This document shows, one piece after another, positions 7,162 to 42,984 of a DNA stretch of 64,000 bases (positions within the stretch are counted from its first letter, which is position 1; each line of letters opens with the position of its first letter). Both the position numbers and the translations under genes were made by a program. Origin of the DNA: a phage; assembly GCA_014685065.1 (NCBI GenBank), contig GCA_014685065.1_4092.2; one strand, 5' to 3'. The notes under the pieces were generated by a model. That model was not told the origin of the DNA and made no database searches. It worked only from the letters and a program-made list of their open reading frames with translations.

Positions 7162-7165
7162 TATT

Positions 7166-7357: not shown

Positions 7358-7383
7358 CTTCGGTCAGCCTTTTTTGTTATAAT
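7351..7383 (+). terminator. bifunctional module: terminator hairpin AGGTTGAC-TTCG-GTCAGCCT + T-run, with -35 TTGACT in the stem and -10 TATAAT downstream
   Basis: hairpin 7351-7370, T-run 7371-7375, TATAAT 7378-7383. Confidence 0.65.
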
Positions 7384-7411
7384 TCTCTTAATAAATTAGA
7401 GGATTTTAATT

Positions 7412-7852
7412 ATGTATGTATATCGTTTTGAACTTAAATTTAGTTACATTGAACCTAACTTAGATCCTGCACGAACTGTAGGTCCGTTTGCACGGTATTC
7501 AACCAGATACAGTACTAAAAATGGATTTGACCGTTTGCTCATGACTACACCTTCTCAATTCCAACCTGAACCAACTGAGGATGGGATCTATTCAATCAAA
7601 AGTGGATGGGTATTTGGCTGTCAAAGTTTGAAAGATTTGTTCAGATTCTTCACTATGGACTTAGGTAAATTGCATCGTGCTGGGTTTGCTATATCTGTAT
7701 ATGAAGTTCCAGACCACCATGTAGACATTGGTCGTAATCAGGTTCAGTACTATTGCGGTAGTGCTAAATTAGTTCGTATCATGTCAGTTAAGGAAGCAAA
7801 GGATGAGTTCCGACAAAGTAAAAGAGAAACACATGAGGTAATATATGGATAA
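7412..7852 (+). CDS. hypothetical protein
   Basis: RBS GAGG; downstream of module. Confidence 0.55.
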   Translation: MYVYRFELKFSYIEPNLDPARTVGPFARYSTRYSTKNGFDRLLMTTPSQFQPEPTEDGIYSIKSGWVFGCQSLKDLFRFFTMDLGKLHRAGFAISVYEVPDHHVDIGRNQVQYYCGSAKLVRIMSVKEAKDEFRQSKRETHEVIYG

Positions 7853-8189
7853 AACTCAAATAGAATTAAAGAAATTTGTTTCATTCTATCTTCCTGATGA
7901 CCCACGTAATTCACAAAAAGATATTGAATATTATAATATCCTATCTAAACAGTTAATGAGAAAGTTTCAACAGTGTTTAACTATATTCAATACAGATGGA
8001 AGACGTAGATACCGAATCGTTTCAATGAATGATGAAAACGCAAATTTCTTTGATTACGATGTGGTTTTTAGAGCATATAATGATGATCGTATAAAATTAA
8101 ATTATGATCAAATTATACTTGACCTGAATGTTATATGTGTTATAATCACTCACGTAGCCGAACTTAATGGTTTTAAAGAATGGTATTGA
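7845..8189 (+). CDS. hypothetical protein
   Basis: overlapping coupled ORF. Confidence 0.5.
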   Translation: MDKTQIELKKFVSFYLPDDPRNSQKDIEYYNILSKQLMRKFQQCLTIFNTDGRRRYRIVSMNDENANFFDYDVVFRAYNDDRIKLNYDQIILDLNVICVIITHVAELNGFKEWY

Positions 8190-8203
8190 ATAAAGGATAA
8201 CAT

Positions 8204-8470
8204 ATGAAGCTTAAATTACAATATAATGGATTTACTTTACGTAATGATACTGAATTTATTAATCGTTCTCCTGGTGCTGAACTGTTTTTACGAGAGATGA
8301 ACATTCCTTTCATCATTACTACAGTGGGCGACCGTGAAGTTCTACAATACGCAGAGCATCCGATCATTGATGTTCCTTGGTACTCTGAGCATATGTACAT
8401 GGATATGGCACGTCGCTACAACTGTAAGTTCGTAGTTGAAGGTGATAAAATTACAGTCGAATTTAAATAA
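8204..8470 (+). CDS. hypothetical protein
   Basis: RBS AGGA before ATG. Confidence 0.5.
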   Translation: MKLKLQYNGFTLRNDTEFINRSPGAELFLREMNIPFIITTVGDREVLQYAEHPIIDVPWYSEHMYMDMARRYNCKFVVEGDKITVEFK

Positions 8471-8481
8471 GGTAAATTAAA

Positions 8482-8775
8482 ATGATCAGTACTTCAGTTA
8501 ATGAAAGCATCGTCGCTGACGTAGAAATGGTTAAAGAATGTGCAGATGAAACTCTTCGTGATATGTACATTAATGATTTAATTACTGAATACGGTAGTCG
8601 TGGTGTACACGAATTTATTCGTTTAAGTGGAGAGTTGATGAAAAATCGAATTCGTATGAAGCTTAACGTACATCCAAAAGCATGGGCATTTACATTAAAA
8701 TACGCAGAAGATATTGTGAATTTGCGTCGAACTGAAGTATATGAACGTTTACACAATGGTATGTTAGATAAATGA
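8482..8775 (+). CDS. hypothetical protein
   Basis: ORF with upstream AAGG RBS. Confidence 0.5.
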   Translation: MISTSVNESIVADVEMVKECADETLRDMYINDLITEYGSRGVHEFIRLSGELMKNRIRMKLNVHPKAWAFTLKYAEDIVNLRRTEVYERLHNGMLDK

Positions 8776-8827
8776 TTGTAAAATAGGAATTCTTAAATGA
8801 ATTCCTTTTTGTTTATAAGGTATAGTA

Positions 8828-9049
8828 ATGAAATATATAGTACTTGTACTGATATTATTCAGTACTGTTGTAAGTGCTAAACAAAAAGAATATGTTAAAT
8901 GTATAAATTACGAAGAGAAATATGTTGAAACATATAAAAAAAGTATAATTAAAAACGTTTCTATTACTGACCGAGGAACAATCATTGTACTTAAAAATGG
9001 GTTAATTATGTTATATAAACCACACGTTAAATGTGAAATTATTAATTGA
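8828..9049 (+). CDS. secreted hypothetical protein
   Basis: signal peptide MKYIVLVLILFSTVVSA. Confidence 0.5.
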   Translation: MKYIVLVLILFSTVVSAKQKEYVKCINYEEKYVETYKKSIIKNVSITDRGTIIVLKNGLIMLYKPHVKCEIIN

Positions 9050-9056
9050 GGAAAAT

Positions 9057-9629
9057 ATGAATCGTAAAGGTCGTTTTAAAGTATCAAAGAAAAATAAGAG
9101 TTCTAGGTTTAAACCTATAGTATTAACAGGTAAATCTAATAAAGAATTGACTGCACTTAGTAAAAAAATAATTTCATCTAAGATTGAAGTATCATACGTA
9201 AATTCATTAAAATATATGAATGTAAAACCACTAGACAAACTCATTTCACTTATATTTCAGCGTAATGATTTTGAGATATCAGTAGATGATTATAGAGCCT
9301 ATAATACTGGTTTCATTAATGTTACTTGTAGTAAAGAACTAACTGAGTTGGAAAACTTGTCATGTATAGTAAATCTAGATAAAGGTGTAGTGAAATACAA
9401 TTTTGTACATTTTACTAATATTAATAATGGCATGGGTGTACAATCCAGACCTATAGTACCTACATGTGATGTTACTAAATTAGCAAAGCTCAATGATGAA
9501 GAATATTTTCAAGAAAGTATTGTGACTGAGCATTTAGATGATATAATAGCTACTTACAAAGAGTGCATATGGGTGTTGAATGCTATAAAGCCTAAATTGT
9601 GTTTAATGAATATTGTTCGTGATTTATGA
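9057..9629 (+). CDS. hypothetical protein
   Basis: ATG 9057 after RBS GAGGAAAAT; track GTG start 9033 overlaps previous gene. Confidence 0.55.
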   Translation: MNRKGRFKVSKKNKSSRFKPIVLTGKSNKELTALSKKIISSKIEVSYVNSLKYMNVKPLDKLISLIFQRNDFEISVDDYRAYNTGFINVTCSKELTELENLSCIVNLDKGVVKYNFVHFTNINNGMGVQSRPIVPTCDVTKLAKLNDEEYFQESIVTEHLDDIIATYKECIWVLNAIKPKLCLMNIVRDL

Positions 9630-9642
9630 ATGGGGAATCGTA

Positions 9643-10086
9643 ATGAGTTGGGTAAATGTTAATAGTATTGAACTTAACGAACAAGATATTTTTGCATTTG
9701 TAAATTTAACCAATAATACAGTACTAAAAGGGCGTTTGTTCAGTGCGAGTGATGGATATAAATGGATCTCTTTGATGGATGATAGTGGTGTGATTTATAA
9801 TGTAATGCAATTACCCCAATGGGTATATAGTAACACTGCTGACGATGTTCTTGCCGCAGTTATGCGTGAGTTTGAAAAACTCCCAGGTGGTGATATCAAA
9901 AACAAAGTTTTTAATGCAGAACGTAAAAATTATACAGCACAGCAGTTGGAATCCCTTGCCATTGCTGCTTATCAAGCTGCTATTAAGAAGCCAGAGTGCG
10001 TTATTCTTAAGTACGTACCAGACTTAAAACTTACGTTGGAAGACATGGATGCATTCATTTTTACATCTGAACTTGATCAGTACTAA
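9643..10086 (+). CDS. hypothetical protein
   Basis: ATG 9643 after RBS GGGGA. Confidence 0.55.
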   Translation: MSWVNVNSIELNEQDIFAFVNLTNNTVLKGRLFSASDGYKWISLMDDSGVIYNVMQLPQWVYSNTADDVLAAVMREFEKLPGGDIKNKVFNAERKNYTAQQLESLAIAAYQAAIKKPECVILKYVPDLKLTLEDMDAFIFTSELDQY

Positions 10087-10201
10087 TTTAACTTTGGGAC
10101 AACCATTCTTATTATGATATAATGTTTTATGTCATTCGATATAAATGACAACGGAACTATAAATATTATAGTAAAATTTATCTCTTATAGGAGTTATAAA
10201 A

Positions 10202-10585
10202 ATGGTTGATAAATGGAATAAGAAAGATCCATCACATGATGTTGATATTTCTGGTCTAGACAATGCACATAAGCACAAGTATCTAGATTCACTAGGTCTT
10301 CTAAAACCAGACCAAAGTCTTGCACATGATCGTCCATCCCGTGAAAAAGCATTTAGCCTAGAATCACTAGGTCATGAGCTTAATCGTGTGTTTGAGGATC
10401 ACCCAATCTATGTACGTGATATTATCGAGAAACTTAAAGTAACTCCTAAAGAGCACTTTAAAGCAACTGTACACTCTGCATTCCGTGCATTGCATGATTC
10501 TCTCAAGAAAACTCACAATCTTCGTAAAATTCATGATGAAATCGTGAATGCAATCGAAAGTGAAAAACATAAGTTCAAGAAGTAA
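10202..10585 (+). CDS. hypothetical protein sharing motifs with large protein at 10831
   Basis: RBS AGGAG; LDSLGLL and I..KL..PKE motifs recur in next large ORF. Confidence 0.55.
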   Translation: MVDKWNKKDPSHDVDISGLDNAHKHKYLDSLGLLKPDQSLAHDRPSREKAFSLESLGHELNRVFEDHPIYVRDIIEKLKVTPKEHFKATVHSAFRALHDSLKKTHNLRKIHDEIVNAIESEKHKFKK

Positions 10586-10592
10586 TAAAAAT

Positions 10593-10626
10593 GGGTTGAC
10601 TAAGGTCAGCCCTTTGTTGTATCATA
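10593..10626 (+). terminator. variant terminator module (GGGTTGAC-TAAG-GTCAGCCC)
   Basis: hairpin 10593-10613; weaker T tract. Confidence 0.5.
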
Positions 10627-10654
10627 ACTTCTCAATATAACTGAGGTATCATAT

Positions 10655-10768
10655 ATGCAAGGTTTGAAATTTGTAGTTGCTGCACTCATCGCCGCAGTTC
10701 TGGTTGGTGGTGTATTCTATGTAGTGGATCAAAAAGTAAATCCACCTGCACAAGAACAATCTAAGTAA
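10655..10768 (+). CDS. 37-aa hydrophobic peptide, single-gene cassette between two terminator modules
   Basis: RBS CTGAGG, ATG 10655; hydrophobic core VVAALIAAVLVGGVFYVV. Confidence 0.35.
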   Translation: MQGLKFVVAALIAAVLVGGVFYVVDQKVNPPAQEQSK

Positions 10769-10776
10769 CAAAATAA

Positions 10777-10813
10777 GGTTGACTTCGGTCAGCCTTTTCT
10801 TTATACTATAAAT
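10777..10813 (+). terminator. bifunctional terminator/promoter module
   Basis: AGGTTGACTTCGGTCAGCCT + TTTTCTTT, then TATACT/TATAAAT. Confidence 0.6.
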
Positions 10814-10830
10814 ATAGACATAGAGAAAAA

Positions 10831-12375
10831 ATGAAATCTATGGAGAGAAATCAAATGCCAAGTAATTTTACTGATAAAAATGGTGGTAACATGGCTGGTC
10901 ACTCGGATAAATGGAGTGAACGCAACCGCCGACCAAATAGTTATCAAGCAGGTCAAGGTTCACGTGGATCACGTAACCAAGGAACTGGTCTAGCTGGTAA
11001 AGCAAACGCAGAAGCAGGTGAAGTTAAGAGTACTGAGAACATGACTGAGCTAGAAAAGCTACGTTATGTTAATTCATTGGGACTTCTTAATGCTACACAA
11101 AAACAACGTCTAGCTGATATGGAACGTGAAGAAAAAGAAAAGTCTGCTCCTGCGAAAGAAGAACCAAAACAAGAAGCACCAAAGGCGGTTAACCCTGTCA
11201 AAGAACTGTCTGATAAGTTAGGTAAGATTTTTGCTAATAAACCACAACTTATCCAAGGTATTGTGAAAGAATTGCAATCTGTACCTAAAGAAGAATTAAA
11301 AGTCAAAGCACAAGCTGTGCTTGATGCAATGAGTGGAAATACCAGTACTGAACCAACTGAAGTATTCAGTACTATAATGCGTGCACTTGAAGGTCAAGAA
11401 GAAGCGACTGCTGAAGAAGCAAGTCTTGAAAGCATCCTCCATACTGTTAACCGTATAGGTAAAGAAGACCGTGCTAACGCCCAGCAAGTTAAGAATGTTC
11501 TTGCTAAGTTAGAAAATCGTCTTGAAGGCAAAGATGATAAGATTCAATTAGTACATGATGCTATTAAAGCAGCATTAGATTCTTACTCACCAGGTGAGAA
11601 GTCTCGATTCATCACTGTTATGAATTCTGCATTCAATACTATGAAAAAGTATGAAGCTGAACATGGTGAGAAAGTATCAAAAGATGGTTACTTAGTTCGT
11701 GCAGATGAAGAAGGTGCAGTTGACCAGAAAGATGCTGAAACATCTCATGATGATTTACCTGATACTGTTGATATGGATGGTTACATTCATCGTCCAGAAA
11801 TGGGAGAGTTTGGTTCTGACAAAGAAGGATTTGAACATGCAATGGCAGTGTACAAAGCTCTCGTGGACAATCCAGATTATGCCAACCGATTTGTAGATGA
11901 GTTTGATAGTGCATGGAACAACTACAAAGACAAAGGTTATGACTTCCCTGCTGAGGCAGCATTCTTTGAACTTGGTAAACTATTAGCTAAACATGGAATT
12001 GATGTAGGTTCTAAAGATGGTACTGATACTGATGGCATGGAAGCAGAATTGGCTAAAGATCGTGAAATGAACGACAACTCCATTCATGAACTCCAAAAGC
12101 TAATGATGTGGATATCCGATATTGGTAAAAAAGCTGGTGCTGATAATAAGAGTATCAACAAAAACATTAGTTGGATTAAAAGTAATGTTGGTAAAAATGC
12201 TCGTAAACTACAAAAAGCATGGACTGATTTAGTAAATGGTGCTGATGATGTTGACATTGAATCACCTGAAGCATACGAATATGCATTAACTACTCTTGAT
12301 AATTCCTTTAAAGATTACGATAACGGTAACGTAACTCATTGGGAAAAGGACATCATGAGCAAATACGGTAAATGA
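10831..12375 (+). CDS. large acidic hypothetical protein (514 aa) with low-complexity Lys/Glu linker
   Basis: longest ORF in first block; alternative ATG at 10855 after GGAGAG. Confidence 0.65.
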   Translation: MKSMERNQMPSNFTDKNGGNMAGHSDKWSERNRRPNSYQAGQGSRGSRNQGTGLAGKANAEAGEVKSTENMTELEKLRYVNSLGLLNATQKQRLADMEREEKEKSAPAKEEPKQEAPKAVNPVKELSDKLGKIFANKPQLIQGIVKELQSVPKEELKVKAQAVLDAMSGNTSTEPTEVFSTIMRALEGQEEATAEEASLESILHTVNRIGKEDRANAQQVKNVLAKLENRLEGKDDKIQLVHDAIKAALDSYSPGEKSRFITVMNSAFNTMKKYEAEHGEKVSKDGYLVRADEEGAVDQKDAETSHDDLPDTVDMDGYIHRPEMGEFGSDKEGFEHAMAVYKALVDNPDYANRFVDEFDSAWNNYKDKGYDFPAEAAFFELGKLLAKHGIDVGSKDGTDTDGMEAELAKDREMNDNSIHELQKLMMWISDIGKKAGADNKSINKNISWIKSNVGKNARKLQKAWTDLVNGADDVDIESPEAYEYALTTLDNSFKDYDNGNVTHWEKDIMSKYGK

Positions 12376-12384
12376 TAAAACTAA

Positions 12385-12418
12385 AGGTTGACTTCGGTCA
12401 GCCTTTTTTTGTAAATAC
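12385..12418 (+). terminator. bifunctional terminator/promoter module
   Basis: AGGTTGACTTCGGTCAGCCT + T7 run. Confidence 0.65.
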
Positions 12419-12445
12419 AAAAGAGGAATTAAGAAGAGGATTACA

Positions 12446-12697
12446 ATGAAAAAATATATTATATTTGGAATTGTATTATTTTCCAGTACTGCTTATGGTG
12501 CAGATTATCATTGCTCCGTAGCAAGGCAGGATTTCAGAAATGGGGAGTTCTATACTACCTCATACACAAAAGGAATAATACACGACACCGACAGAACTAT
12601 TGGATTTAATGCGTTTGACAACAAAGATTCATATACTTCAGGTATACTATCTGAGCGTAAGACGGATGTACTCGGAATAGAAAAAGAGTTTCGGTGA
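12446..12697 (+). CDS. secreted hypothetical protein
   Basis: signal peptide MKKYIIFGIVLFSSTAYGA; RBS AGAGGA. Confidence 0.5.
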   Translation: MKKYIIFGIVLFSSTAYGADYHCSVARQDFRNGEFYTTSYTKGIIHDTDRTIGFNAFDNKDSYTSGILSERKTDVLGIEKEFR

Positions 12698-12707
12698 TTC
12701 CGTGGCA

Positions 12708-13025
12708 ATGTGTAATGACATTGAAAGTACTAAAAAAATTTATTATAATAATGAAATAAATTATCGTTTTCATAATTTAACCACAAATAAAAGTTTACTA
12801 TTTTACAATTGTAAAGAAGTAAAACTCCCACCAGACAATAGCTGTAACCCAACAAACCCATCACCAGCACAATGTAATACTCCAACTGAACCTGATACCA
12901 ATAAAAAAGACAAAGATAAAAAAGAAGACAAAAAACCATTAAAAGATAAAAGGAAAGATAAAAAACCTAATCCGTTTAAAAATAATAAACCAGCACAACC
13001 CGATATGACGTGTAAAATAAAATAA
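12708..13025 (+). CDS. Lys/Pro-rich hypothetical protein
   Basis: ORF with KDKDKKEDKK low-complexity tail; start uncertain (GTG 12702 or ATG 12708). Confidence 0.4.
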   Translation: MCNDIESTKKIYYNNEINYRFHNLTTNKSLLFYNCKEVKLPPDNSCNPTNPSPAQCNTPTEPDTNKKDKDKKEDKKPLKDKRKDKKPNPFKNNKPAQPDMTCKIK

Positions 13026-13034
13026 GGATATATA

Positions 13035-13454
13035 ATGAAAAAGATTTTTTTAAGTATTATTTTAGTACTTTTTAGTTTTAATGTATATGCAGCAGATGCT
13101 AAACAGGTTGCTAATACAGTAAAAGATGTTATAGTAGACAATGCTCCTACCTTAGAGGAAATTGGGGTAAAAACTTGTGATATAGTAATATATAATTTAG
13201 TTAATGATGAACGAGTTATGTTGAATACGTATGAACAAGTAGTCCCATTGGTTGAATCTGGTGATGCTTTTAGCTTTACATATAAAGTTAAATTAACAGG
13301 AGGGGTTGAAGTTAATCTTGACATTGATACCGCTTCAGTACTAAAAGATAAACTAGGATATGTGTTCAATCGTATTCGTGAAGAAGGTCATCTTAAGTAT
13401 GTTTATGAAAGTAAAATACTAAAACGTGCAATAGTTATAGAAAACTGTAAATGA
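13035..13454 (+). CDS. secreted hypothetical protein
   Basis: signal peptide MKKIFLSIILVLFSFNVYAA; RBS AAGGA. Confidence 0.55.
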   Translation: MKKIFLSIILVLFSFNVYAADAKQVANTVKDVIVDNAPTLEEIGVKTCDIVIYNLVNDERVMLNTYEQVVPLVESGDAFSFTYKVKLTGGVEVNLDIDTASVLKDKLGYVFNRIREEGHLKYVYESKILKRAIVIENCK

Positions 13455-13461
13455 TAATAAA

Positions 13462-13495
13462 AGGGTTGACTTCGGTCAGCCTTTTTTGTTATGAT
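13462..13495 (+). terminator. bifunctional terminator/promoter module
   Basis: AGGGTTGACTTCGGTCAGCC + T6, then TATGAT. Confidence 0.65.
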
Positions 13496-13523
13496 GTTGA
13501 TATTAACTACAGAGGATAAAGTA

Positions 13524-14165
13524 ATGACTAAGCAAGAAATATTCAAAACTTTAATTGACATTTTGCGTCCATCAAAAACTCGTTGTGCGATGGAGTTTGA
13601 TATTCCTTATGCTGAACGCGTAATCTTTCCACAAGTTAAAGCTGCTGGACTTACTTTGCTTGGAATGGGGATGTACTCTGTAGTAGTTGAACATAAAAAC
13701 TATCCTGGACGAGCATTTAAAGTAACCACTTCACGCTGGGATGGTTTTCGTGCTTATGCAAAGTACTGCATTGAAAACGCAGGAACCAAGTTTCTTCCAG
13801 TGATCTACAGTGCCAACGAACAAGGAAACTTTGGATGGTATGAGATGGACAAGTACTATCCTATAATTAAACAAAAAAATAATTATGATGACTTTGTTAG
13901 TACTAAAATTGGAGATTTGTATTCGTATGCACATGCTGGTCAGTACGCAACTTCAGTGAATGATATGCGTGGAAATTCTGAAGAGATTGCTATTGCAACG
14001 GTCGCTGCTAACATCATGAAAGAGTTTCACGGGCGTTTTGTACCAGACATTCATTCAAGTAATGTAATGATGGATAAAGATGGGAATGTATTCATTACTG
14101 ATCCTCTTTCGTGTGATGTGCGTAGAGAAATACCAATTACTGAAGAAGATCCAGTTTTTTATTGA
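13524..14165 (+). CDS. protein-kinase-like fold protein (atypical mini-kinase)
   Basis: Gly-loop-like LGMGMYSVVV, AFKV, catalytic-loop-like DIHSSNVMM, ITDP; start set to ATG 13524 after AGAGGA. Confidence 0.5.
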   Translation: MTKQEIFKTLIDILRPSKTRCAMEFDIPYAERVIFPQVKAAGLTLLGMGMYSVVVEHKNYPGRAFKVTTSRWDGFRAYAKYCIENAGTKFLPVIYSANEQGNFGWYEMDKYYPIIKQKNNYDDFVSTKIGDLYSYAHAGQYATSVNDMRGNSEEIAIATVAANIMKEFHGRFVPDIHSSNVMMDKDGNVFITDPLSCDVRREIPITEEDPVFY

Positions 14166-14226
14166 CAGAACTGATGTTCTGATGTATTCTTAATAAACCA
14201 TAAAAATTGCGGTAAAGGATAAAATC

Positions 14227-14508
14227 ATGCGTTCATTTGAAAACTTAATAGGTAAGCATCTTTTATCTGAAATTGATGCAGACGTTAAAGAATTATCCAA
14301 ATCAAAAAGTTACATTCATTTGGATGAACTGTTTGTTAAGTACGGTGAGATTGGTTTTAAATCATTATTTGTTTTTACTATGAAAGTACATAGTTTAAAG
14401 TACTTCGATTTGAGTGCTAAAGATGGTGAACCGAATCTATATTACATGTATTACCTTAAGAACAAAGATGAAGCTAATACATTACTCTCTGAATATATAT
14501 TGGGGTAA
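14227..14508 (+). CDS. hypothetical protein
   Basis: RBS AAGGA before ATG. Confidence 0.5.
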   Translation: MRSFENLIGKHLLSEIDADVKELSKSKSYIHLDELFVKYGEIGFKSLFVFTMKVHSLKYFDLSAKDGEPNLYYMYYLKNKDEANTLLSEYILG

Positions 14509-14510
14509 AA

Positions 14511-14849
14511 ATGGAACAATATTTTGAATTAATAAACAAAGTATCATTTTATGTAGTATCTTTGGTTTGGGTGTATTATATGTTTTGCTACATTATTGCA
14601 TTCTTCCGATACACTACTTTATATGAACGTATCTACTATGATGCCCCAATTTCATTCTTGATGTTTTGTGCATGTACGTGGGGAATATTAGAAGTACTGA
14701 TATGTGGGTATAGTACTGATGAATTAAATCTGGTATCGGTCTTGACTGGGTTTTCATTTGTTGTTATGATAGCTGCCGTTCCAGTATGGTTGTTCTTTGT
14801 ACTAGTTCATCGCATTGATATATGGCGTTCTAATATCCCTGAAAAGTAA
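14511..14849 (+). CDS. small membrane protein, paralog family T
   Basis: 2-3 TM helices; shared F(R/K)Y..L..R.Y motif and basic C-terminal tail NIPEK. Confidence 0.55.
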   Translation: MEQYFELINKVSFYVVSLVWVYYMFCYIIAFFRYTTLYERIYYDAPISFLMFCACTWGILEVLICGYSTDELNLVSVLTGFSFVVMIAAVPVWLFFVLVHRIDIWRSNIPEK

Positions 14850-14852
14850 GGA

Positions 14853-15200
14853 TTGGTAATGATTTATTACACTAACATGTTTGCCTATGCTGTTGCTTGC
14901 ATTTACATTGTTTACTTCTTATTCGGTGGAGTACTGTGCTTCTTTAAGTACAAAACATTGTTCAACCGAATGTACCCAAATCATCCAATTGTAGTTGTAC
15001 TTTTGATTCTTTCAGTTTCTCAAATAATCGTTGAAACTACAATGGGTATCAGTAGTGTACATTATAGTTTTGGCACTATAGTAATTATTACTATGCTTAT
15101 TGCATACATTTTAGTACTTGGATATGGTATCTTTGGTAATATTGGTATGAAAATGTATCATCGAATTAAAACATTACGTGATAATCTACCGGAGCGTTGA
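14853..15200 (+). CDS. small membrane protein, paralog family T
   Basis: same architecture; tail NLPER. Confidence 0.55.
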   Translation: MVMIYYTNMFAYAVACIYIVYFLFGGVLCFFKYKTLFNRMYPNHPIVVVLLILSVSQIIVETTMGISSVHYSFGTIVIITMLIAYILVLGYGIFGNIGMKMYHRIKTLRDNLPER

Positions 15201-15201
15201 T

Positions 15202-15546
15202 ATGTATAATTTGAACCTAATCTCATATATTATAACAACACTGTTTACATTCTATGCCTTTGTTGGTATAATCCTACTGTACTTTAAATTTTATAAAGTG
15301 TTTAACCGTTTCTATCCTTCAATGGAGAATGAGTTTTTCTTTGTGTTGTACGTATGTTACACATTAATGGCTACATGTTTCACTGTAGCCGATGGTGTCA
15401 TCGGCATTAAAACTGCTTCCCCAAATGGTAGTACGCTGGTTGCATTTATTCTTACTGGATTCCTTGCAACTTATATTGCCTTCATTACAACATGGTCAGT
15501 GGTTGAATTTCTCTTGCGACTACGAAAGAATATGCCGAATCGATAG
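15202..15546 (+). CDS. small membrane protein, paralog family T
   Basis: ATG 15202 after GGAG; tail NMPNR. Confidence 0.55.
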   Translation: MYNLNLISYIITTLFTFYAFVGIILLYFKFYKVFNRFYPSMENEFFFVLYVCYTLMATCFTVADGVIGIKTASPNGSTLVAFILTGFLATYIAFITTWSVVEFLLRLRKNMPNR

Positions 15547-15555
15547 GAGACATAT

Positions 15556-15810
15556 ATGTTTGCGTTGCGTAATAAAAACACTAAAGAATTATTATGTATT
15601 GATACCGTATGGGATTGTGCGGGATCAACTACAGTTCTTGAAGAAGGAACTGGATATTGCGTGTTTGTTGTACATGATAGGAATGAACTCGAATTATTAC
15701 TTGCTGAGTTCAATGCTGGTGGTAATCCTAACTGTACTGAATACCCTGAGATTATCAATCCAGCACCACCAGGCTCTTATGAAATTCTACAACTGTGGGA
15801 GTTGAAGTAA
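15556..15810 (+). CDS. hypothetical protein
   Basis: RBS GGAGA before ATG. Confidence 0.5.
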   Translation: MFALRNKNTKELLCIDTVWDCAGSTTVLEEGTGYCVFVVHDRNELELLLAEFNAGGNPNCTEYPEIINPAPPGSYEILQLWELK

Positions 15811-16190
15811 TGCGTCAAATGCACAAAGTAACCGAGCTAAACAAGCGTCTGGTTAAACAATCAATGTTCGAGGATAAAGAGTCTTATTATAACTTTAAAC
15901 GTGCAGTAGAGGCTGCTATCCACATTCAGAAGCTTAAAGAACGTGGTTGTATTATTCTGGAAAATGGTTCGGAAGTTGTAACGGATGACTTTAGTGTAGC
16001 GTTTGATGTTTCACCTGACGGGACGCTATCAATGCCCCGCTTAGGAACTGGAAACATGACTGTTTGGGTTGGCTTCACTATGGGGAATGTACCTGGTACT
16101 GTGTACGTAGATGATGCAGAATTGAAAGACAGTTTCAAAAACTTATCTTATCTTGAACCACAATACGCACATGAAATGAATTTATTTTGA
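15810..16190 (+). CDS. hypothetical protein
   Basis: ATG 15810 overlapping previous stop (TAATG). Confidence 0.5.
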   Translation: MRQMHKVTELNKRLVKQSMFEDKESYYNFKRAVEAAIHIQKLKERGCIILENGSEVVTDDFSVAFDVSPDGTLSMPRLGTGNMTVWVGFTMGNVPGTVYVDDAELKDSFKNLSYLEPQYAHEMNLF

Positions 16191-16191
16191 G

Positions 16192-16249
16192 TTGACAAAC
16201 ACATTCAGTACTGTATAATGCTTATCAAGGGGATGAACTTCTCATCCCT
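16192..16249 (+). promoter_or_regulatory. promoter (TTGACA-16-TGTATAAT) plus 5' stem-loop GGGATGA-ACTTC-TCATCCC
   Basis: TTGACA 16192-16197, TATAAT 16214-16219, hairpin about 16228-16249. Confidence 0.6.
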
Positions 16250-16266
16250 ACAATCGAGGAACTACC

Positions 16267-16821
16267 ATGATTACTTTTAAGAAAACTGCTAACCACATCC
16301 ATGAAATCTACATTAACGGTCACAAAGCTGGCCTTCTTCGTTTACTCGCCCATCACCCTGATGCTACCGTATCTGATAATGAACCTAAAGATTGGCGTGT
16401 CTTTTTCTTTGGAAAGTACAGTGATTTTCAAGTATCAAACCTGAAGAACATTCGTTCAGTATGCACGTTAACTGAAATTAAAGAAAAGTTAGCACAAGCA
16501 TTGAAAACTAATCCAGATGGTGTTCTTCCACCTGATAACTTTGTAGAGAAAGGTTATGCCTTAGCTCATTTCAAAGATGGTACTATTCAATCTATCAGTA
16601 CTGAATATGAATATCATTGGACTGAGTACTTCACTTATGGTTCGAGTAATACATTGATGGATTCACGTAGTAAATTGGAAGAAGTACTGACTCGTATGAA
16701 TGAACGCGAGCGTCAGTTATATGACAAACCAGAAATGTGGAGTTCAACTTACATTGACCGTATTGACTATGTTATTATGACTCCAATCTTTGACACTGCT
16801 TACTATGATTCTTTGAAATAA
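16267..16821 (+). CDS. hypothetical protein
   Basis: RBS GAGGA; 184-aa ORF. Confidence 0.55.
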   Translation: MITFKKTANHIHEIYINGHKAGLLRLLAHHPDATVSDNEPKDWRVFFFGKYSDFQVSNLKNIRSVCTLTEIKEKLAQALKTNPDGVLPPDNFVEKGYALAHFKDGTIQSISTEYEYHWTEYFTYGSSNTLMDSRSKLEEVLTRMNERERQLYDKPEMWSSTYIDRIDYVIMTPIFDTAYYDSLK

Positions 16822-16832
16822 GGATAACTTAT

Positions 16833-17009
16833 ATGAAACTACGTACTCGTAATCGACTGATGGATGCACTGTACAATGAACAGCTTTCACTGAATGAAGT
16901 GAAGCGTCAGTTAATGTACACATATCAGTTTCCCGCTCGCATTGCAAAACAACGTGCTAAAGAATTGCTGAAAGAAGCAATCGAGTACTGGGAATCTGAT
17001 TCGTACTAA
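16833..17009 (+). CDS. small basic hypothetical protein (58 aa)
   Basis: RBS AAGGA, ATG 16833; followed by ACGTGA-tatg-TCACGT hairpin. Confidence 0.35.
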   Translation: MKLRTRNRLMDALYNEQLSLNEVKRQLMYTYQFPARIAKQRAKELLKEAIEYWESDSY

Positions 17010-17048
17010 TATTACGTGATATGTCACGTTAATTAAGTGAGGCGATAA

Positions 17049-17300
17049 ATGAAAATATTATTAGTTCTAATACTACTAATAGTTTTACCATTTACTTTAG
17101 TATCCCCTGGACTTGCATGGAATGTATTTGTGTACTTAGTATGTACTATTGTAGTAAATGGTATCTTGTTCTTAGTTCTATTCATAAATGGAATAGGACA
17201 CGGTGGAGGATGGACCAGTACTGCTGATATTGTACATAAAACCACTATGTCTTTATTTGTAATGTGGAATTTATTCTGGACTTGGTTTGTGTTCTTCTAA
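17049..17300 (+). CDS. small membrane protein
   Basis: RBS GAGG; hydrophobic throughout. Confidence 0.45.
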   Translation: MKILLVLILLIVLPFTLVSPGLAWNVFVYLVCTIVVNGILFLVLFINGIGHGGGWTSTADIVHKTTMSLFVMWNLFWTWFVFF

Positions 17301-17308
17301 TTAAAAAT

Positions 17309-17680
17309 ATGAATATAGATTTGAAAGGTGCAACACGAACTGTTATCCTCATTGGGGAATATGCTATCAAGATTCCAACCTTTAAAAGTTGGAAGCTATT
17401 CTTAACAGGGATGATAGCTAACCTCAATGAACGTTCGTGGATGCAGTACTCCAATCGTAGTGATAGTAGTATCTGTCCTACGTTGTGGTCATCATGTACT
17501 GGACTAGTAACTGTACAGAAACGTTGTAAGCCAGTTCAACATAGGGGTTTATTTTGGGTGGAGTTGTGTGCTTTAGCATTGAATTCAGAGTTAAGTACTG
17601 ACTTCTTCTATTCAGATGCGAAGCCAGAAAACTTTGGGTATCTGGGTGGTAAGTTAGTTAAACTTGATTATGGAGATTAA
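17309..17680 (+). CDS. minimal protein-kinase-like protein
   Basis: GEYAIKIP (VAIK-like), SDAKPENFGY (catalytic-loop-like), KLDYGD (DFG-like) at C-terminus. Confidence 0.5.
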   Translation: MNIDLKGATRTVILIGEYAIKIPTFKSWKLFLTGMIANLNERSWMQYSNRSDSSICPTLWSSCTGLVTVQKRCKPVQHRGLFWVELCALALNSELSTDFFYSDAKPENFGYLGGKLVKLDYGD

Positions 17681-17681
17681 T

Positions 17682-17951
17682 ATGTACGCACTGTATAATA
17701 AAGAAAAGAAACGATTTGCTAAGGTTGAAATTTCGATTGATACATTTGATATGTTGGAGTACTGTATTGTAACTGACCTATATGCTAACTTGTATTACGT
17801 TCTTGATGACGTATCAGTACTGCAACGATTGCTTGAGAATTCCAAAAGTCAATGCCAGGGCATCCATGATGGTTCATCTTATGAAACACCTGAGTGTTCC
17901 TACGGCTATCTGGACGGGTATGAGATTGTGAAGTTGGGGATCATTGAATAA
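17682..17951 (+). CDS. hypothetical protein
   Basis: ATG 17682 after GGAG. Confidence 0.45.
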   Translation: MYALYNKEKKRFAKVEISIDTFDMLEYCIVTDLYANLYYVLDDVSVLQRLLENSKSQCQGIHDGSSYETPECSYGYLDGYEIVKLGIIE

Positions 17952-17954
17952 AGA

Positions 17955-17990
17955 AAAGGGTTGACTTCGGTCAGCCCTTTTTGCTATAAT
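17955..17990 (+). terminator. bifunctional terminator/promoter module, long form
   Basis: AAAGGGTTGACTTCGGTCAGCCCTTTTTGCTATAAT; TTGACT 17961-17966, TATAAT 17985-17990. Confidence 0.7.
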
Positions 17991-18018
17991 TATTTCATCA
18001 AGACGAGAGGATGAATAC

Positions 18019-18534
18019 ATGACACGCATTAACTTAGTACACGTTAAAGAACTTGCTGACCAACATCTGATGGCTGAATATCGTGAACTCCCACGTGTAT
18101 TTGGTGCTGTACAAAAACACGTTCAAGCACGTAAGCGTGTACGTGATTTCAAAATTAACAGTACTTATCTGTTAGGTTCAGGTCATGTGACATTCTTTTA
18201 CGACAAGTTGCTGTACTTACAGAAGCGTCATATCGATATTGTTAACGAATGTTTGCGTCGTGGTATGAAGATTCAAAACACTGAAGTAAACGACATTAGC
18301 GGCTTCCCTGCTGAGTTTTGTAATGACTACGTACCAACGGAGTCAGAGATTAAAATGTCTCGTGATCGTTTGATTGAGAAGCTCCAGATGAAGCCTACGT
18401 GGTATAAGTTTACTGATGTTGAATGTCCACAGTACGTTAAAGATATGCAGAACGTAAGTAGTAAGAACGAATCTAGTACTGATATGTTCGACGAAATTGA
18501 AGAACAAATCAAAGATGAAATGAATAATTATTAA
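18019..18534 (+). CDS. denV: endonuclease V (pyrimidine-dimer DNA glycosylase), T4 DenV homologue
   Basis: N-terminus [39 protein letters not shown]...[10 protein letters not shown] is near-identical to T4 endonuclease V as recalled from memory. Confidence 0.85.
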
Positions 18535-18539
18535 AGGAA

Positions 18540-18556
18540 AGGGTTGACTTCGGTTA
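18540..18556 (+). repeat. truncated copy of the terminator module (left arm only)
   Basis: GGGTTGACTTCGGTTACAC lacks the complementary arm and T-run. Confidence 0.5.
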
Positions 18557-18572
18557 CACAAAGGAACATAAC

Positions 18573-18767
18573 ATGTTATTAGTATATTCAAAGCGTTTCT
18601 GGATTTCTTTTATTGTACTATCGCTAATCGGCTTCGGTTTGAGTATACTCTTTTCGTGGGATGAATTGGGTACATGGTATTATGAAGTCCCGTGGTACAT
18701 GAAGATAGCTCCTTGTTATGCGGCATTGTTCGTGTCATTCCTTATTGTTGTCTTCAGCGAGGATTAG
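18573..18767 (+). CDS. small membrane protein
   Basis: RBS AAGGAA; hydrophobic 64-aa ORF. Confidence 0.4.
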   Translation: MLLVYSKRFWISFIVLSLIGFGLSILFSWDELGTWYYEVPWYMKIAPCYAALFVSFLIVVFSED

Positions 18768-18873
18768 TTGATGTAGTATGTGCTACACCAAAGTATTTGG
18801 ATATTTTAGATATAAACATTGACACCTGTTCTATCTTTCTGTATTATGTACATCACCAAATGAGGAATACAAC

Positions 18874-19233
18874 ATGGCATCTTTAAGTGAAATCGCAGAA
18901 TACAACCCACTAACAATCTCAACAATTCAACGTACAAAAACTTTTTATTTCCGTCCTGCTGATGGATGGAAACGTGGAATGAATGGTGACTATCGAGTAC
19001 TGGAAGATTCACTAATCGAGCGTATCAACTCTGAACTACAGAAGTATGAAGGTGTTAAAGTTGTGCGTTCAACTTCTCGTTATTTTGAGTACTACATTGA
19101 GTCTTCAACTGTAAATGAAAACTCATCATTCTCGGTGGACAACACTGATATTCTTCGTAATGCTGTTGGTCTTTTATGCAGGATTGCAGAAGAAATTGGA
19201 TTAACTATCACCACAATGAGTGAGTTAGAATAA
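18874..19233 (+). CDS. hypothetical protein
   Basis: RBS GAGGAA before ATG. Confidence 0.5.
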   Translation: MASLSEIAEYNPLTISTIQRTKTFYFRPADGWKRGMNGDYRVLEDSLIERINSELQKYEGVKVVRSTSRYFEYYIESSTVNENSSFSVDNTDILRNAVGLLCRIAEEIGLTITTMSELE

Positions 19234-19236
19234 CAT

Positions 19237-19272
19237 AAAGGGTTGACTTCGGTCAGCCCTTTTTGCTATAAT
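19237..19272 (+). terminator. bifunctional terminator/promoter module, long form
   Basis: same 55-bp unit as at 17955 and 20651; TATAAT 19267-19272. Confidence 0.7.
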
Positions 19273-19298
19273 TATTTCATCAACACAAGAGGTAACAA

Positions 19299-41041: not shown

Positions 41042-41149
41042 TTAAACACAAGTAGACAGGGGAAGCTCCTAGTGAACAACCTTTATGTACAGGCGAATTG
41101 TTAAAATTCAGCCTGGACAAATGCGATCACTAGGATTCTCCCCAGGCTA

Positions 41150-41250
41150 AACCCCGTAATCATAGGTAGTCATAAGTAATCATATATAAACATTTAAGTA
41201 ATCATTTATAATCACTGTAGTGATCAGTAGTGATCAGTAGTGAGTACTAG
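41150..41250. repeat. direct repeats: GTAATCA copies and tandem GTAGTGATCA x3
   Basis: taagtaatcat ... taagtaatcattta ... agtgatcagtagtgatcagtagtgagtact. Confidence 0.6.
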
Positions 41251-41379
41251 AGTACAGGAATGTTCACGTTTAATCAAGAACGTAGCAGTACTGATATGCC
41301 ACTAAGTAGGCAGAGGAAGTCTGCCGTACTTTGTAGTTTCCAAGCTCCTTTTCCATTTTGCAAATTACATCAAATGTAA

Positions 41380-41420
41380 TCAAAAGTAATCAAAAGTAAT
41401 CACGCAATGATTAGTACTGA
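41380..41420. repeat. AAAGTAATCA x3 at 10-bp spacing, plus inverted copy
   Basis: aaatgtaatcaaaagtaatcaaaagtaatcacgcaatgattag; helical-turn periodicity. Confidence 0.6.
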
Positions 41421-41446
41421 ATTATTACTTTCACCTTAATTTCAAT

Positions 41447-41485
41447 TACCCCTTTACCCTTCGGGGTAAAATTCAATTACCCCTT
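41447..41485 (+). repeat. TTCAATTACCCCT direct repeat flanking hairpin TTTACCC-ttcg-GGGTAAA
   Basis: read directly. Confidence 0.5.
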
Positions 41486-41678
41486 GAGGCTCCAGCAAAA
41501 AGTTGGTTAGTACTCCATCCTAAATCTCGATCCTAAAAATTTTGGAGTACCTATGAAATAAAAGTTGGATCTTCGAAAGTTGAAATTTACGTTGGGACAT
41601 ATAGGATTTGTGGGATATAATGAGTTTTGTAGCGATACAGATTATACGATTTCAGTACTGAATAATGAAAGAAAGCTA

Positions 41679-41706
41679 TTGACATTATGATTCAGTACTG
41701 TATAAT
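41679..41706 (+). promoter_or_regulatory. sigma70-like promoter (TTGACA-16-TGTATAAT) inside ORF-free region
   Basis: TTGACA 41679-41684, AGTACTGTATAAT to 41706; no ORF over about 20 codons downstream. Confidence 0.55.
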
Positions 41707-41711
41707 GTTCT

Positions 41712-41820
41712 ACATAGAGAGATGAGTTGCTGCGAACAATTCATTTACTCTACCTCCTGTCGTGAGACAGTACAGAAAAGATAGTTCCTCCTGTGGTGGT
41801 ACATCTTTTTGAACCTCATA
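41712..41820 (+). ncRNA. candidate small non-coding transcript (or 18-codon peptide)
   Basis: starts after promoter at 41679; runs to T-tract CATCTTTTTG about 41803-41812; only ORF is 18 codons. Confidence 0.25.
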
Positions 41821-41890
41821 TGAAAATCGTAATAACAGTACTGATATTAACAGAATGGTGTCAGTACTGATTTTAATCTAAAGCATTATG

Positions 41891-41910
41891 CCACCAGCTT
41901 GTGCTGGTGG
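41891..41910 (+). promoter_or_regulatory. strong stem-loop CCACCAGC-ttgt-GCTGGTGG
   Basis: perfect 8-9 bp GC-rich stem; no T-run. Confidence 0.4.
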
Positions 41911-42075
41911 ATTCCCTCTAACAGTATTCAGTACTACATGATAGTCTTCATCCTCCTACAGTAACAGTGAGGGCTATTGTGGCAGTACTGAATACTCCCT
42001 TTCAAAAGATAGATCTATGGTATAGTACTGACGGATTTTGGGCGTAGTAACCCTAGGTTGAATTTAGACGTAGAG

Positions 42076-42215
42076 ATGTCTAGACCTCCAGATGGCTGGA
42101 AGTAAAGATGGCTATCCCTCTAGGCGGCTGGATGGCTAGATTTCTAGATGGCTGTACTGCTAGACGTTTGGACGGCTAAACGGCTAGATGGTTACACGTC
42201 TGGATGTATAGACGG
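42076..42215. repeat. iteron-like cluster of (A/G)GATGG(C/T)T and GACGGCTAA direct repeats
   Basis: at least 8 copies in about 140 bp with 15-25 bp spacing. Confidence 0.65.
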
Positions 42216-42382
42216 CTAAATCAAAATTTTTATTTTATTTTTTCCAATAGTTCCCCTACCGCGTGGGGATGGTTTCCCCGCAGTATCTGGAGTTAGATTT
42301 TTCTGAATCTGGAATCATTATCCCCGTTTTCGCCTGGTATGTCAACCGTCTGGATGAATAATTTTAAAAAATAATCTAGTAC

Positions 42383-42435
42383 TGAATTTTGGGCGTAACT
42401 ATGCACCCGGTGGGCTTGAGTCTTTCTCGACTTGA
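42383..42435 (+). repeat. repeated element ACTGAATTTTGGGCGTAA...GCACCC...TTTCTCG, copy 1
   Basis: second copy at 42596-42650; shorter third copy near 42028. Confidence 0.55.
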
Positions 42436-42595
42436 TGAAACTATTATACAGTACTGAAAAAATAAAGCAATACCCTAAACGCAAAAAGTTTTAATTAATT
42501 TGCTTGCCATCCTGGGGCGTACTATGGTACTATATTTCAGTACTGAGAAAGTGCTATGACCTGCTAAGGTGCGGGAGTGTATCCTTTTTAAATTT

Positions 42596-42650
42596 ACTGA
42601 ATTTTGGGCGTAATTCCGCACCCCCAGGGGTATCCGCTTTCTCGCGTCTA
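42596..42650 (+). repeat. repeated element, copy 2
   Basis: actgaattttgggcgtaattccgcacccccaggggtatccgctttctcgcg. Confidence 0.55.
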
Positions 42651-42899
42651 TGTAGTAATTATACGCTTTTTCGGTGCTGAGTCAATAGCTAAAAACAAAA
42701 TAATTGAAAATAATTTAACGCGTTTAAACGGCCCGTAAAGCCCTGGTTAGCTGGTGGCGGTGCAAATGTATAGCTTAGGTGTATTAATGCGTTAGAAAGC
42801 GGCTGAGGCCGTTTTATGGTGTATAGTACTGATTCAGTACTGAAAGATAGTTCCCCTATATAGAAAGAAAACTATTTTAAAAGTATTTGTAGAAAGTAC

Positions 42900-42960
42900 T
42901 TGCAAAGTATTGGGAAAGGTGTAGAATGTTTTACATCGAGACGGGGGATACGCTCCCGAC
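42900..42960 (+). promoter_or_regulatory. PeSL-like module: promoter (TTGCAA ... TAGAAT) + leader stem-loop
   Basis: agtacttgcaaagta ... gtagaatgttttacatcgagacgggggatacgctcccg. Confidence 0.55.
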
Positions 42961-42984
42961 TCACTTTTAAAAGAGATTAAAACG

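Follow-up and report, generated by a model that had tools for sequence, protein, structure and literature searches.

The DNA analysed here is a stretch of 64,000 nucleotides from a phage, called the window below, and our subject is its segment from 41042 to 42984 (1,943 bp). The segment is 96% identical to Escherichia phage 121Q, and by sequence kinship the source of the window is a 121Q-like jumbo phage of the genus Asteriusvirus. At least 80% of the segment is kept in 35 relatives, which are Asteriusvirus and allied Salmonella phages with genomes of 310-385 kb and with E. coli and Salmonella as hosts. Their records mostly leave it without annotation or fill it with small hypothetical open reading frames (ORFs) from pipelines. 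Judged by these relatives, it is the junction between the unique genome and a direct terminal repeat (DTR) of ~20.1 kb, together with the noncoding leader that opens the DTR. We read it as probably a cis-acting terminal control region, serving packaging cleavage and immediate-early transcription, with an array that is loaded by a host repressor and that resembles the injection stop signal (iss) region of T5. The original prediction, made from the letters alone, had called the segment a gene-free and repeat-dense candidate for a replication origin, a packaging site or a noncoding RNA locus. Every feature that it listed is present, with corrections to positions and counts that are given below.

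The left boundary of the DTR, and with it a physical end of the genome, almost certainly lies between 41304 and 41305. The first base in the records of six relatives (CRJP21, vB_Ec-M-J, BF17, E9.1, BAU.Micro_ELP-22 and the reverse-complemented end of G17) corresponds to window position 41305, at the sequence AGTAGGCAGAGGAAGTCTGCC. The first 20,668 bp of G17 are the same as its last 20,668 bp with 0 mismatches, several relatives' records of 366-384 kb carry the region twice, and the annotation of vB_Ec-M-J includes a DTR at 1..21525. The right end of the DTR maps to 61399, so the repeat occupies 41305-61399 (20,095 bp, + strand), and all of its genes and near-consensus sigma-70 promoters are directed rightwards. 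For the present isolate, the end position is inferred from these relatives. That Asteriusvirus and its relatives have long DTRs is known already; the published length is ~20-21 kb (PMC13070987, PMC6563267, PMC5259590). The DTR of fEgEco12 was confirmed by PhageTerm and restriction digests (PMC13070987), that of G17 is supported by coverage (PMC6563267), and that of CBB by coverage and pulsed-field gel electrophoresis (PMC5259590).

The cut falls in a conserved motif. The terminus in the window reads CAGTACTGATATGCCACTA^AGTAGGCAGAGGAAGTC (41286-41321, + strand, with the caret at the presumed terminase cut), and the form CAGTACTG-N4-11-CCRCTA^N11-RAAGTC is common to four genera, Asteriusvirus, Alcyoneusvirus and those represented by GAP32 and Kaldavass. 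(Among the phages compared, BF belongs to Eneladusvirus; CBB, XbC2 and GAP32 to Mimasvirus; and Muenster and RaK2 to Alcyoneusvirus.) The 19 nt directly outside the cut (CAGTACTGATATGCCACTA) are identical in the Alcyoneusvirus genomes of RaK2 and phiKp_21, and the Muenster record begins at the next base. In GAP32 and Kaldavass, TTCAGTACTG-N-CC(A/G)CTA stands directly before the base where the CBB, XbC2 and BF records begin, and (G/A)AAGTC is found at +12 to +17 in all of these phages. Since independently determined ends agree with a conserved motif, the assignment of the end to the base is credible. A hairpin, GGCAGA-GGAAG-TCTGCC (41309-41325, + strand), begins 4 nt inside the terminus and includes the conserved GAAGTC. 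The right boundary, between 61399 and 61400, reads GAAGTCGCTA^AGGTTACCC on the reverse strand (61340-61420). The GCTA^AG junction read here recurs in CBB, Muenster and Kae01. It mirrors the cut motif on the left, and each end of the repeat thus has an RCTA^ motif just outside it, the two being inverted relative to each other.

The suggestion of a packaging site therefore holds in that the region contains the left DTR boundary; the terminus itself was not among the features cited for it. A headful pac site, with circular permutation and imprecise ends, was considered and rejected, because the ends are fixed and are base-identical in six relatives and in other genera. The 52 kb record of phiKp_21 had at first suggested an unrelated phage with the same element, but this idea was rejected, the record being a partial Alcyoneusvirus contig. 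The cut motif makes it possible to orient Rak2-like genomes with base precision. Many of these genomes have been deposited with arbitrary starts and spurious small ORFs in the leader.

To the right of the cut is a noncoding leader of 1.68 kb, and its module order is conserved in five further Rak2-like lineages (BF, CBB, XbC2, Muenster and Kae01). The same architecture is found in GAP32, Kaldavass, RaK2 and Munch, and little other noncoding sequence is common to the lineages. In all nine of these phages the DTR starts with 1.3-1.8 kb without credible genes. The terminus is followed by a conserved AAATTTTGGAGTACC block and a strong rightward sigma-70 promoter at +260 to +400. Then come a TTTTGGG(C/T)GTA box, the repeat array, a T-rich tract, the box TTCCATTAG(C/T)TCCCCT(T/A)CCGCG and a hairpin. 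Last are an inverted-repeat element, present in one to three copies and bordered on at least one side by promoter-like sites, and the first early gene. The conserved block of the window is GTACTCCATCCTAAATCTCGATCCTAAAAATTTTGGAGTACC ... GATCTTCGAAAG (41510-41582, + strand); by eye it is recognizable in BF, CBB, XbC2 and Kae01 at 100-280 nt from their ends.

That the segment has no plausible ORF was upheld, the longest frames within it being 63 aa (with a TTG start) and 58 aa. A 99-aa frame on the minus strand is annotated as a hypothetical protein in relatives such as E9.1 and BAU, at record positions 1002-1301 and 1011-1310, which are window 42293-42621 and span a duplicated element described below. 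It was rejected as a gene. In the window it is broken by a stop and a 1-nt indel, and its variable sites fall on codon positions 1, 2 and 3 in the numbers 21, 17 and 19, with no third-position excess and no other coding signature. The annotation is probably an artefact. Known RNA families did not turn up either: Rfam 15 at gathering scores gave nothing credible over the whole window, relaxed E-values gave just two chance-level matches in the region (E = 3 and 3.8), and an ARAGORN tRNA scan gave nothing credible.

The first promoter past the end, P1, is a perfect sigma-70 site, TTGACA-16-TATAAT (12/12; 41679-41706, + strand), with no downstream ORF. Its hexamers are invariant in eight Asteriusvirus genomes, and five other lineages have a similar rightward promoter at +260-400. 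The eight genomes, whose leaders are otherwise 85-91% identical, hardly differ between the -35 hexamer and about 41950, and the few changes of E9.1 in the stretch downstream of P1 would alter amino acids of its sole short frame. The ~200 nt after P1 have a fold z-score of -4.95, and 0 of 200 shuffles fold as well. The predicted noncoding transcript (41713-41911, + strand) would contain a 5' stem-loop, two CCUCC tracts and two hairpins, the first terminator-like with a U-rich tail (41836-41869) and the second GC-rich (41892-41911, CCACCAGC...GCTGGTGG). The loop of the second is TTGT in the window, 121Q and G17, and ACAA in five other relatives with the stem kept, which looks like inversion of a loop within an intact stem. 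The stretch fits a functional noncoding RNA or, failing that, a strongly constrained DNA element, and we consider it likely that the leader is transcribed into noncoding RNA. The proposed noncoding RNA locus is plausible on these grounds, a perfect promoter followed by a near-invariant, strongly folding and ORF-less stretch, with transcription predicted from the sequence. In PA5oct, a member of the Rak2-like clade, the DTR genes are highly transcribed early, and two abundant noncoding RNAs arise in the DTR (PMC7318152).

The most regular part of the leader is an array of 19 in-register 8-bp units (AGAYGKCT; 42066-42217), which read AGATGTCT, AGATGGCT, AGACGTTT, GGACGGCT, AAACGGCT, ACACGTCT, AGACGGCT and so on. 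This is the iteron-like cluster that had been described as at least eight repeats at 42076-42215; the cluster is real, and it is larger and more regular than was thought, with all units in one register. It was found by register scoring, the units being too degenerate for Tandem Repeats Finder, which missed it. The best 16-unit register score in the window is 92, in the array, versus 51 at the next place, and the longest runs in shuffled 64-kb sequence are 4-7 units. The units resemble the met boxes bound by the methionine repressor MetJ. Their mean match to the met-box consensus AGACGTCT is 5.8 of 8 positions, compared with 5.6 for the boxes of the E. coli metB operator (AGAAGTTT AGATGTCC AGATGTAT TGACGTCC).

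Published criteria for MetJ operators (Augustus and Spicer 2011, PMC3228920) use a half-box weight matrix and ask for at least two adjacent in-register 8-bp boxes, each with at least one quarter of the consensus score (3.15 bits) and with a total of at least the consensus score of 12.58 bits. Sixteen of the 19 units reach 3.15 bits, and sub-operators of 4, 4 and 7 boxes score 25.7, 25.9 and 55.8 bits; the metB operator, with four boxes, scores 31.3 bits by the same matrix. No other site in the 64-kb window qualifies, and shuffled sequence yields at most 3 boxes and 16.4 bits. The array thus satisfies the published sequence criteria for MetJ operators. Among Asteriusvirus genomes the number of units is 17-19 and changes in 8-bp steps only. 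MetJ is confined to five gammaproteobacterial orders (PMC3228920), metJ is present in E. coli K-12, and the named hosts of array-bearing phages are all in MetJ-containing orders except for one Xanthomonas label. On balance, and by a modest preference, we expect that the array binds MetJ.

The array is embedded in further conserved elements. Directly upstream is the GATTTTGGGCGTA box (42034-42046, + strand), two more copies of which, at 42384 and 42599, are in the inverted-repeat elements. Directly downstream is the AT-rich tract AAATCAAAATTTTTATTTTATTTT (42218-42241), T-rich in all lineages compared, and then the conserved box TTCCAATAGTTCCCCTACCGC(G) (42242-42262, + strand), which in 14 genomes lies downstream of either of the two array types described below. 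Next is a 7-bp hairpin, GTGGGGA-TGGTT-TCCCCGC (42263-42281, + strand), whose pairing is supported by covariation. Five of the seven pairs change on both sides, 89.6% of alignment cells are paired versus 29-47% with the partner columns slid, and 0 of 500 shuffles reach the observed score. The stem variants among the lineages are GGGG/CCCC, CTAGT/ACTAG, CTGG/CCAG, AGGG/CCCT and CGGAATAT/ATATTCCG, and a conserved U-G wobble suggests that it is the + strand that would fold. A leftward sigma-70-like promoter, TTGACA-17-GATAAT (11/12; 42317-42345, - strand), points into the hairpin, AT tract and array. The four GC-rich hairpins of the segment, several having been claimed, are thus at 41309-41325, 41892-41911, 42263-42281 and 42942-42958, the last in the leader of the first DTR gene.

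A duplicated element, first noticed as 55 bp at 42383 and 42596, was confirmed and extends to 70 nt, 42380-42449 and 42595-42664, with 71% identity between the copies. Copy 1 (42380-42470) has the right half only, with a leftward promoter-like site, TTGCTT-16-TATAAT (42470 to 42443), that was recognized by direct reading. Copy 2 (42504-42685) has a rightward promoter-like site at 42504-42533 and a leftward TTGACT-16-TATAAT from 42685 to 42658, and its arms, 42560-42577 and 42614-42630, enclose a GAATTTTGGGCGTA box and are followed by a conserved TCCGCTTTCTCGCGTCTATGTAGTAATTATAC stretch. Between the arms, the lineages with Fur-type arrays have a Fur-type box in place of the GAATTTTGGGCGTA box. 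A conserved RNA structure for the element was not demonstrated: the arms GGGTGCGG and CCGCACCC are conserved in sequence, two sequences show compensatory change at one column, and folding gives z-scores of about -1.9 to -2.0. The element could work at the RNA level, form a cruciform in the DNA or be a binding site for protein.

The same slot is filled in one of two ways in other phages. Met-box-like arrays of 16-17 units are present in BF, CBB, XbC2, GAP32 and Kaldavass. In exactly the same slot RaK2, Muenster, phiKp_21, Kae01 and Munch have Fur-box-like arrays, with palindromes such as GAGAATGATAATGATTCTC in which 14-17 of 19 positions match the Fur-box consensus; the window leader has no match to the Fur consensus. 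In every jumbo lineage compared, the array is 0.65-0.9 kb from the genome end and between the same conserved flanks. T5-like phages also carry both types. In T5 itself, the part of the iss region described as direct repeat C and palindromes E-I (AY587007, 9468-9637) is Fur-box-like at 14-17 of 19 positions; the Aeromonas phage AhSzq-1 has 29 met-box-like units in an untranslated stretch near A2, and the Vibrio phage Pontus has 17 between GGATTTGCAC repeats and three DnaA boxes. Ten such units stand at 38-117 in the autographivirid PGT2, in whose record the match occurs twice. As far as sequence likeness goes, then, two array types, each like the operator of an abundant and cooperative host metabolic repressor, are interchangeable between fixed flanks, and the swap is seen in two unrelated phage groups, both with long DTRs carrying what appear to be early genes driven by host promoters.

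The leader ends with the promoter (AAAGTACTTGCAA-16-TAGAAT) and 5' leader hairpin (42942-42958) of the first DTR gene (42985-43347), which together occupy 42900-42984 on the + strand. From 42985 to 61399, promoters of the perfect form TTGACA-16/17-TATAAT number 11 in the DTR, and those that match at 10 or more of the 12 positions about 35; all are on the + strand, and many terminator-like hairpins accompany them. This set of full-consensus host promoters is unusually dense. Pfam matches in the DTR include a GNAT acetyltransferase, a DksA/TraR zinc finger, a ParE-like toxin domain, DUF7247, DUF7249 and a weak protein-kinase-like match; the matched genes (52640-52996, 57054-57638 and small DTR ORFs) have plausible host-takeover functions. 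In the 50 DTR ORFs scanned with Pfam, no ribbon-helix-helix, MetJ or Arc domain and no informative T5-like match turned up. The gene content and promoters give the DTR the profile of an immediate-early host-takeover block. A cassette of ~38 bp, AAAGGGATTGACTCCGGTCAGTCCCTTTGCTATTATAT, is repeated within it at 50307-50342, 54346-54381, 57650-57685 and 59911-59946. Its terminator-like hairpin includes the -35 (TTGACT) of the next promoter, such that terminator and promoter overlap.

The flank on the unique side of the cut (41042-41304) contains an inverted repeat (41053-41075 with 41127-41149) and GTRATCA-type 10-bp repeats (41156-41243). Only its last 19 nt are shared with G17 and Alcyoneusvirus, and the unique-side 200 bp differ among close relatives. 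A tandem repeat reported at 41218-41248 is present as 2.7 copies of GTAGTGATCA, spanning 41217-41243. The GTAATCA triplet with exact 10-bp spacing also exists, at 41376, 41386 and 41396 (+ strand, block 41369-41402) and not at 41385-41410 as first given; it lies 72-98 bp inside the end, and relatives retain two or three of the copies. Eight same-strand copies of GTRATCA fall in 41156-41402, flanking the cut at about -150 to -60 and at +72 to +98, and the outer set is not conserved even in G17. The clustering is real, and the word itself is not over-represented in the window (28 copies versus about 24 by chance).

AGTACT, reported at about 17 sites mostly as CAGTACTGA, does have 17 sites in the region, about half of them in that form, and 8 of the 20 copies of CAGTACTGA in the window fall here. 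We dropped it as a local signal, as its excess is window-wide: 264 sites versus 21.6 expected (12-fold), which places it among the most over-represented hexamers along with the overlapping GTACTG and CAGTACT. The density is 3.1 per kb in coding DNA and 8.8 per kb in noncoding DNA, and because AGTACT is frequent even inside genes the 17 sites do not mark the locus. Only 29 sites have the AAAGTACTTG(A/C) form adjoining a -35 hexamer. Enrichment of this palindrome in coding DNA is the opposite of the usual avoidance of such sites by phages. To the right of the repeat, the 2.6 kb from 61400 to 64000 have zero AGTACT sites, compared with 3-6 per kb elsewhere, and contain tightly packed, apparently paralogous ORFs of ~65 aa behind one strong promoter-like site (61439-61466). 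Adjoining the repeat boundary on the left, at 37836-41041, are about 16 tandem ORFs of ~60 aa on the + strand, with a GC skew of -0.15 to -0.2 and a strongly positive AT skew that set them apart from other + strand genes.

Under the reading that we favour, of a cis-acting terminal control region with a repressor-loaded array, these parts would work together as follows. The terminase would recognize the CCACTA^...GAAGTC site and make the left-end cut. On infection, host RNA polymerase would fire from P1 and the DTR promoters, with P1 yielding a structured noncoding RNA. Host MetJ, with its corepressor S-adenosylmethionine (SAM), would coat the array cooperatively, as Fur with iron would in the sister lineages, so that a long nucleoprotein block would stand ~0.8 kb from the genome end. 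The analogy with Repeat Region 3 of T5 suggests that the block would act in cis on DNA traffic at the end. It might stop incoming DNA or hold it in place, which would let the DTR be expressed first, or it might be a roadblock that insulates the DTR from transcription across the concatemer junction. That the role of the array is entry control or insulation, and not replication or repressor titration, is a tentative proposal, which we put at somewhat below an even chance. The more specific idea that host-repressor operator arrays (MetJ here, Fur in the sister lineages and in T5) are the cis signal that halts or anchors incoming DNA, giving a two-step entry as in T5 with the DTR first, is speculative and by our own estimate unlikely.

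Several observations weigh against this reading. The terminus of the isolate is carried over from relatives, and the entry-control view takes the leading genome end as an assumption. G occupies box position 6 in about half of the units versus ~10% of natural met boxes, and therefore the true ligand could be a protein other than MetJ. One array-bearing phage, XbC2, is labelled as infecting Xanthomonas, a MetJ-less host. (Its leader closely resembles that of the Erwinia phage Kaldavass, both with a 16-unit met-box-like array, and it may be worth re-examining the host given for it, or its host range.) DnaA boxes are the feature that Davison stresses for the T5 iss (preprint 10.1101/866236). With TTWTNCACA as the box, one each is found in the scanned T5 and AhSzq-1 stretches, 0 in the window leader and 0 in four of five other leaders, with one in CBB. 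No homologue of T5 A1 or A2 was seen among the 50 DTR ORFs scanned with Pfam. Finally, the iss function of the T5 region is itself only putative.

Among the alternatives, the one that keeps most of its force is that the ligand of the array is encoded by the phage itself, perhaps a packaging factor or a ribbon-helix-helix protein of the Arc/MetJ class, and that the likeness of the array to MetJ operators is coincidental. The many units with G at position 6, unlike the palindromic met-box consensus, would fit such a ligand, as would the short tandem repeats that are classical features of T7-type genome ends. The same array is present, however, in jumbo myoviruses, T5-like siphoviruses and an autographivirid, which are unlikely to share a specialized protein. 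The domain scan described above, which covered the DTR only, gave no candidate, and the swap with Fur-type boxes argues for host factors. We regard a dedicated phage ligand as unlikely.

A replication origin, the first suggestion for this locus, is a little less probable still. The array would be the initiator sites, the AT tract at 42218-42241 the place of unwinding, and the box and hairpin the place where helicase and primase are loaded, with priming that might start at the leftward promoter (42345-42317) as in the R-loop origins of T4. The order of array, AT tract, conserved box and covarying hairpin is kept across lineages, which counts for an origin and against our own reading, and the leftward promoter points into these elements. 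The minimum of the cumulative GC skew is at ~41 kb, the right edge of the 37836-41041 ORF array, and a T4-like replisome is reported for these phages in the CBB paper (PMC5259590). However, the skew switches where one gene block gives way to another and where an atypical family of paralogous ORFs lies. The 8-bp unit is out of helical phase and matches the operator of a host repressor; iterons would be helically phased at ~17-22 bp with an initiator nearby, and we find an exact 8-bp period and no initiator-like domain in the nearby ORFs scanned, although the adjacent AT-rich element expected of such an origin is there at 42218-42241. There are no consensus DnaA or IHF sites in the window leader; among the other leaders, BF has a single IHF-like match and CBB a single DnaA-like one. 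Replacement of the array by Fur-type boxes in sister lineages would be unexpected for a dedicated initiator, and T5-like phages carry both array types although the T5 origins are reported near the genome centre (Davison preprint 10.1101/866236). An origin, as argued from helical-phase repeats and iterons, thus keeps a low probability, with the 8-bp period, the host-operator match and the missing DnaA and IHF sites speaking against it.

The array might instead be a repressor sponge. Accumulating genomes, with two DTR copies each, would titrate MetJ (or Fur) and de-repress host methionine and SAM synthesis (or iron uptake) to the benefit of the phage. The arrays do qualify as MetJ sites, greatly exceed in length the two E. 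coli operators examined, and have as their interchangeable alternative the operator of another metabolic repressor. But a decoy could sit anywhere, and the array is fixed at ~0.65-0.9 kb from the end in all jumbo lineages compared and recurs in end-proximal repeat regions of T5-like phages and one T7-like phage. It is also coupled to the conserved box and hairpin, and their presence beside it indicates a role in cis. We think titration as the main role improbable. The idea that the stretch is a spacer the phage could do without, made of repeat-rich junk that recombination at the boundary left behind, can be set aside almost entirely: the unique-side 200 bp do vary among close relatives, but 35 relatives retain the whole stretch with near-invariant parts, a module order kept across lineages and a hairpin with compensatory changes, which contradicts the expectation that relatives would show it to be dispensable.

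The object itself is of a known kind, a long-DTR boundary with an untranslated control region like the T5 iss. Two things appear new in the present case, the conserved cut motif and a super-operator of MetJ type in whose place other lineages have Fur-type arrays. A literature search of incomplete coverage gave no account of the cut motif, the gene-free leader, the MetJ-type array or the Fur-type swap, nothing relevant on MetJ, met boxes or Fur boxes in phage terminal repeats, and no paper naming T5 direct repeat C and palindromes E-I or the jumbo arrays as Fur boxes. If the proposal about entry is true, it supplies a candidate molecular basis for the T5 injection stop signal and extends it to jumbo phages. 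Should host repressors really cover this DNA, the virus would have a new means of linking the entry of its genome, its early transcription or the protection of its ends to the SAM or iron status of the host.

The known systems can be compared part by part. With the iteron and AT-rich origins of lambda and plasmids, the window shares a repeat array of the protein-binding type directly beside an AT-rich tract. It differs in its unit length (8 bp versus 17-22 bp), in lacking DnaA and IHF sites and an initiator gene next to the array, and in that the array type is swapped among its relatives. With the E. coli MetJ operators, it shares the 8-bp unit, the tandem register giving CTAG junctions, and scores within or above those of metB and metF. 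It differs in having 19 units versus 4-5 in the two natural operators examined, in the frequent G at position 6, and in that the array is viral and not over a methionine-gene promoter.

Short tandem repeats near the genome end are classical features of T7-type ends. Those ends also resemble the present one in having fixed cut sites at both repeat boundaries and a strong host promoter less than 400 bp from the end with all genes directed inwards, and the T7-like autographivirid PGT2 carries the 8-bp array too, as 10 units at 38-117. The window differs in the length of its repeat, 20 kb versus ~0.2 kb in T7-type phages.

The closest comparison is to Repeat Region 3, or iss, of T5 (Davison preprint 10.1101/866236). 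The differences are that the window leader is without DnaA boxes and without the DRD (GGATTTGCAC) repeats, that the jumbo leader adds the predicted P1 RNA, the TTCCATTAG box and the duplicated inverted-repeat element, and that two-step DNA transfer is for Rak2-like phages a proposal by analogy. Both regions are gene-free, ~1.2-1.9 kb long and straddle the inner boundary of a long DTR, which they overrun by 270 bp in T5 and 263 bp in the window. Both are upstream of pre-early genes that are driven by host promoters and point away, and both are rich in direct repeats, inverted repeats and palindromes. Taken in the orientation of G17, the parts follow the order of the left repeat of T5, with the end, early genes directed toward the end, noncoding repeat region and inner DTR boundary. 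Finally, in the T5-like phages the equivalent place is occupied by these two kinds of array, the Fur-box-like one in T5 and the met-box-like one in AhSzq-1 and Pontus.

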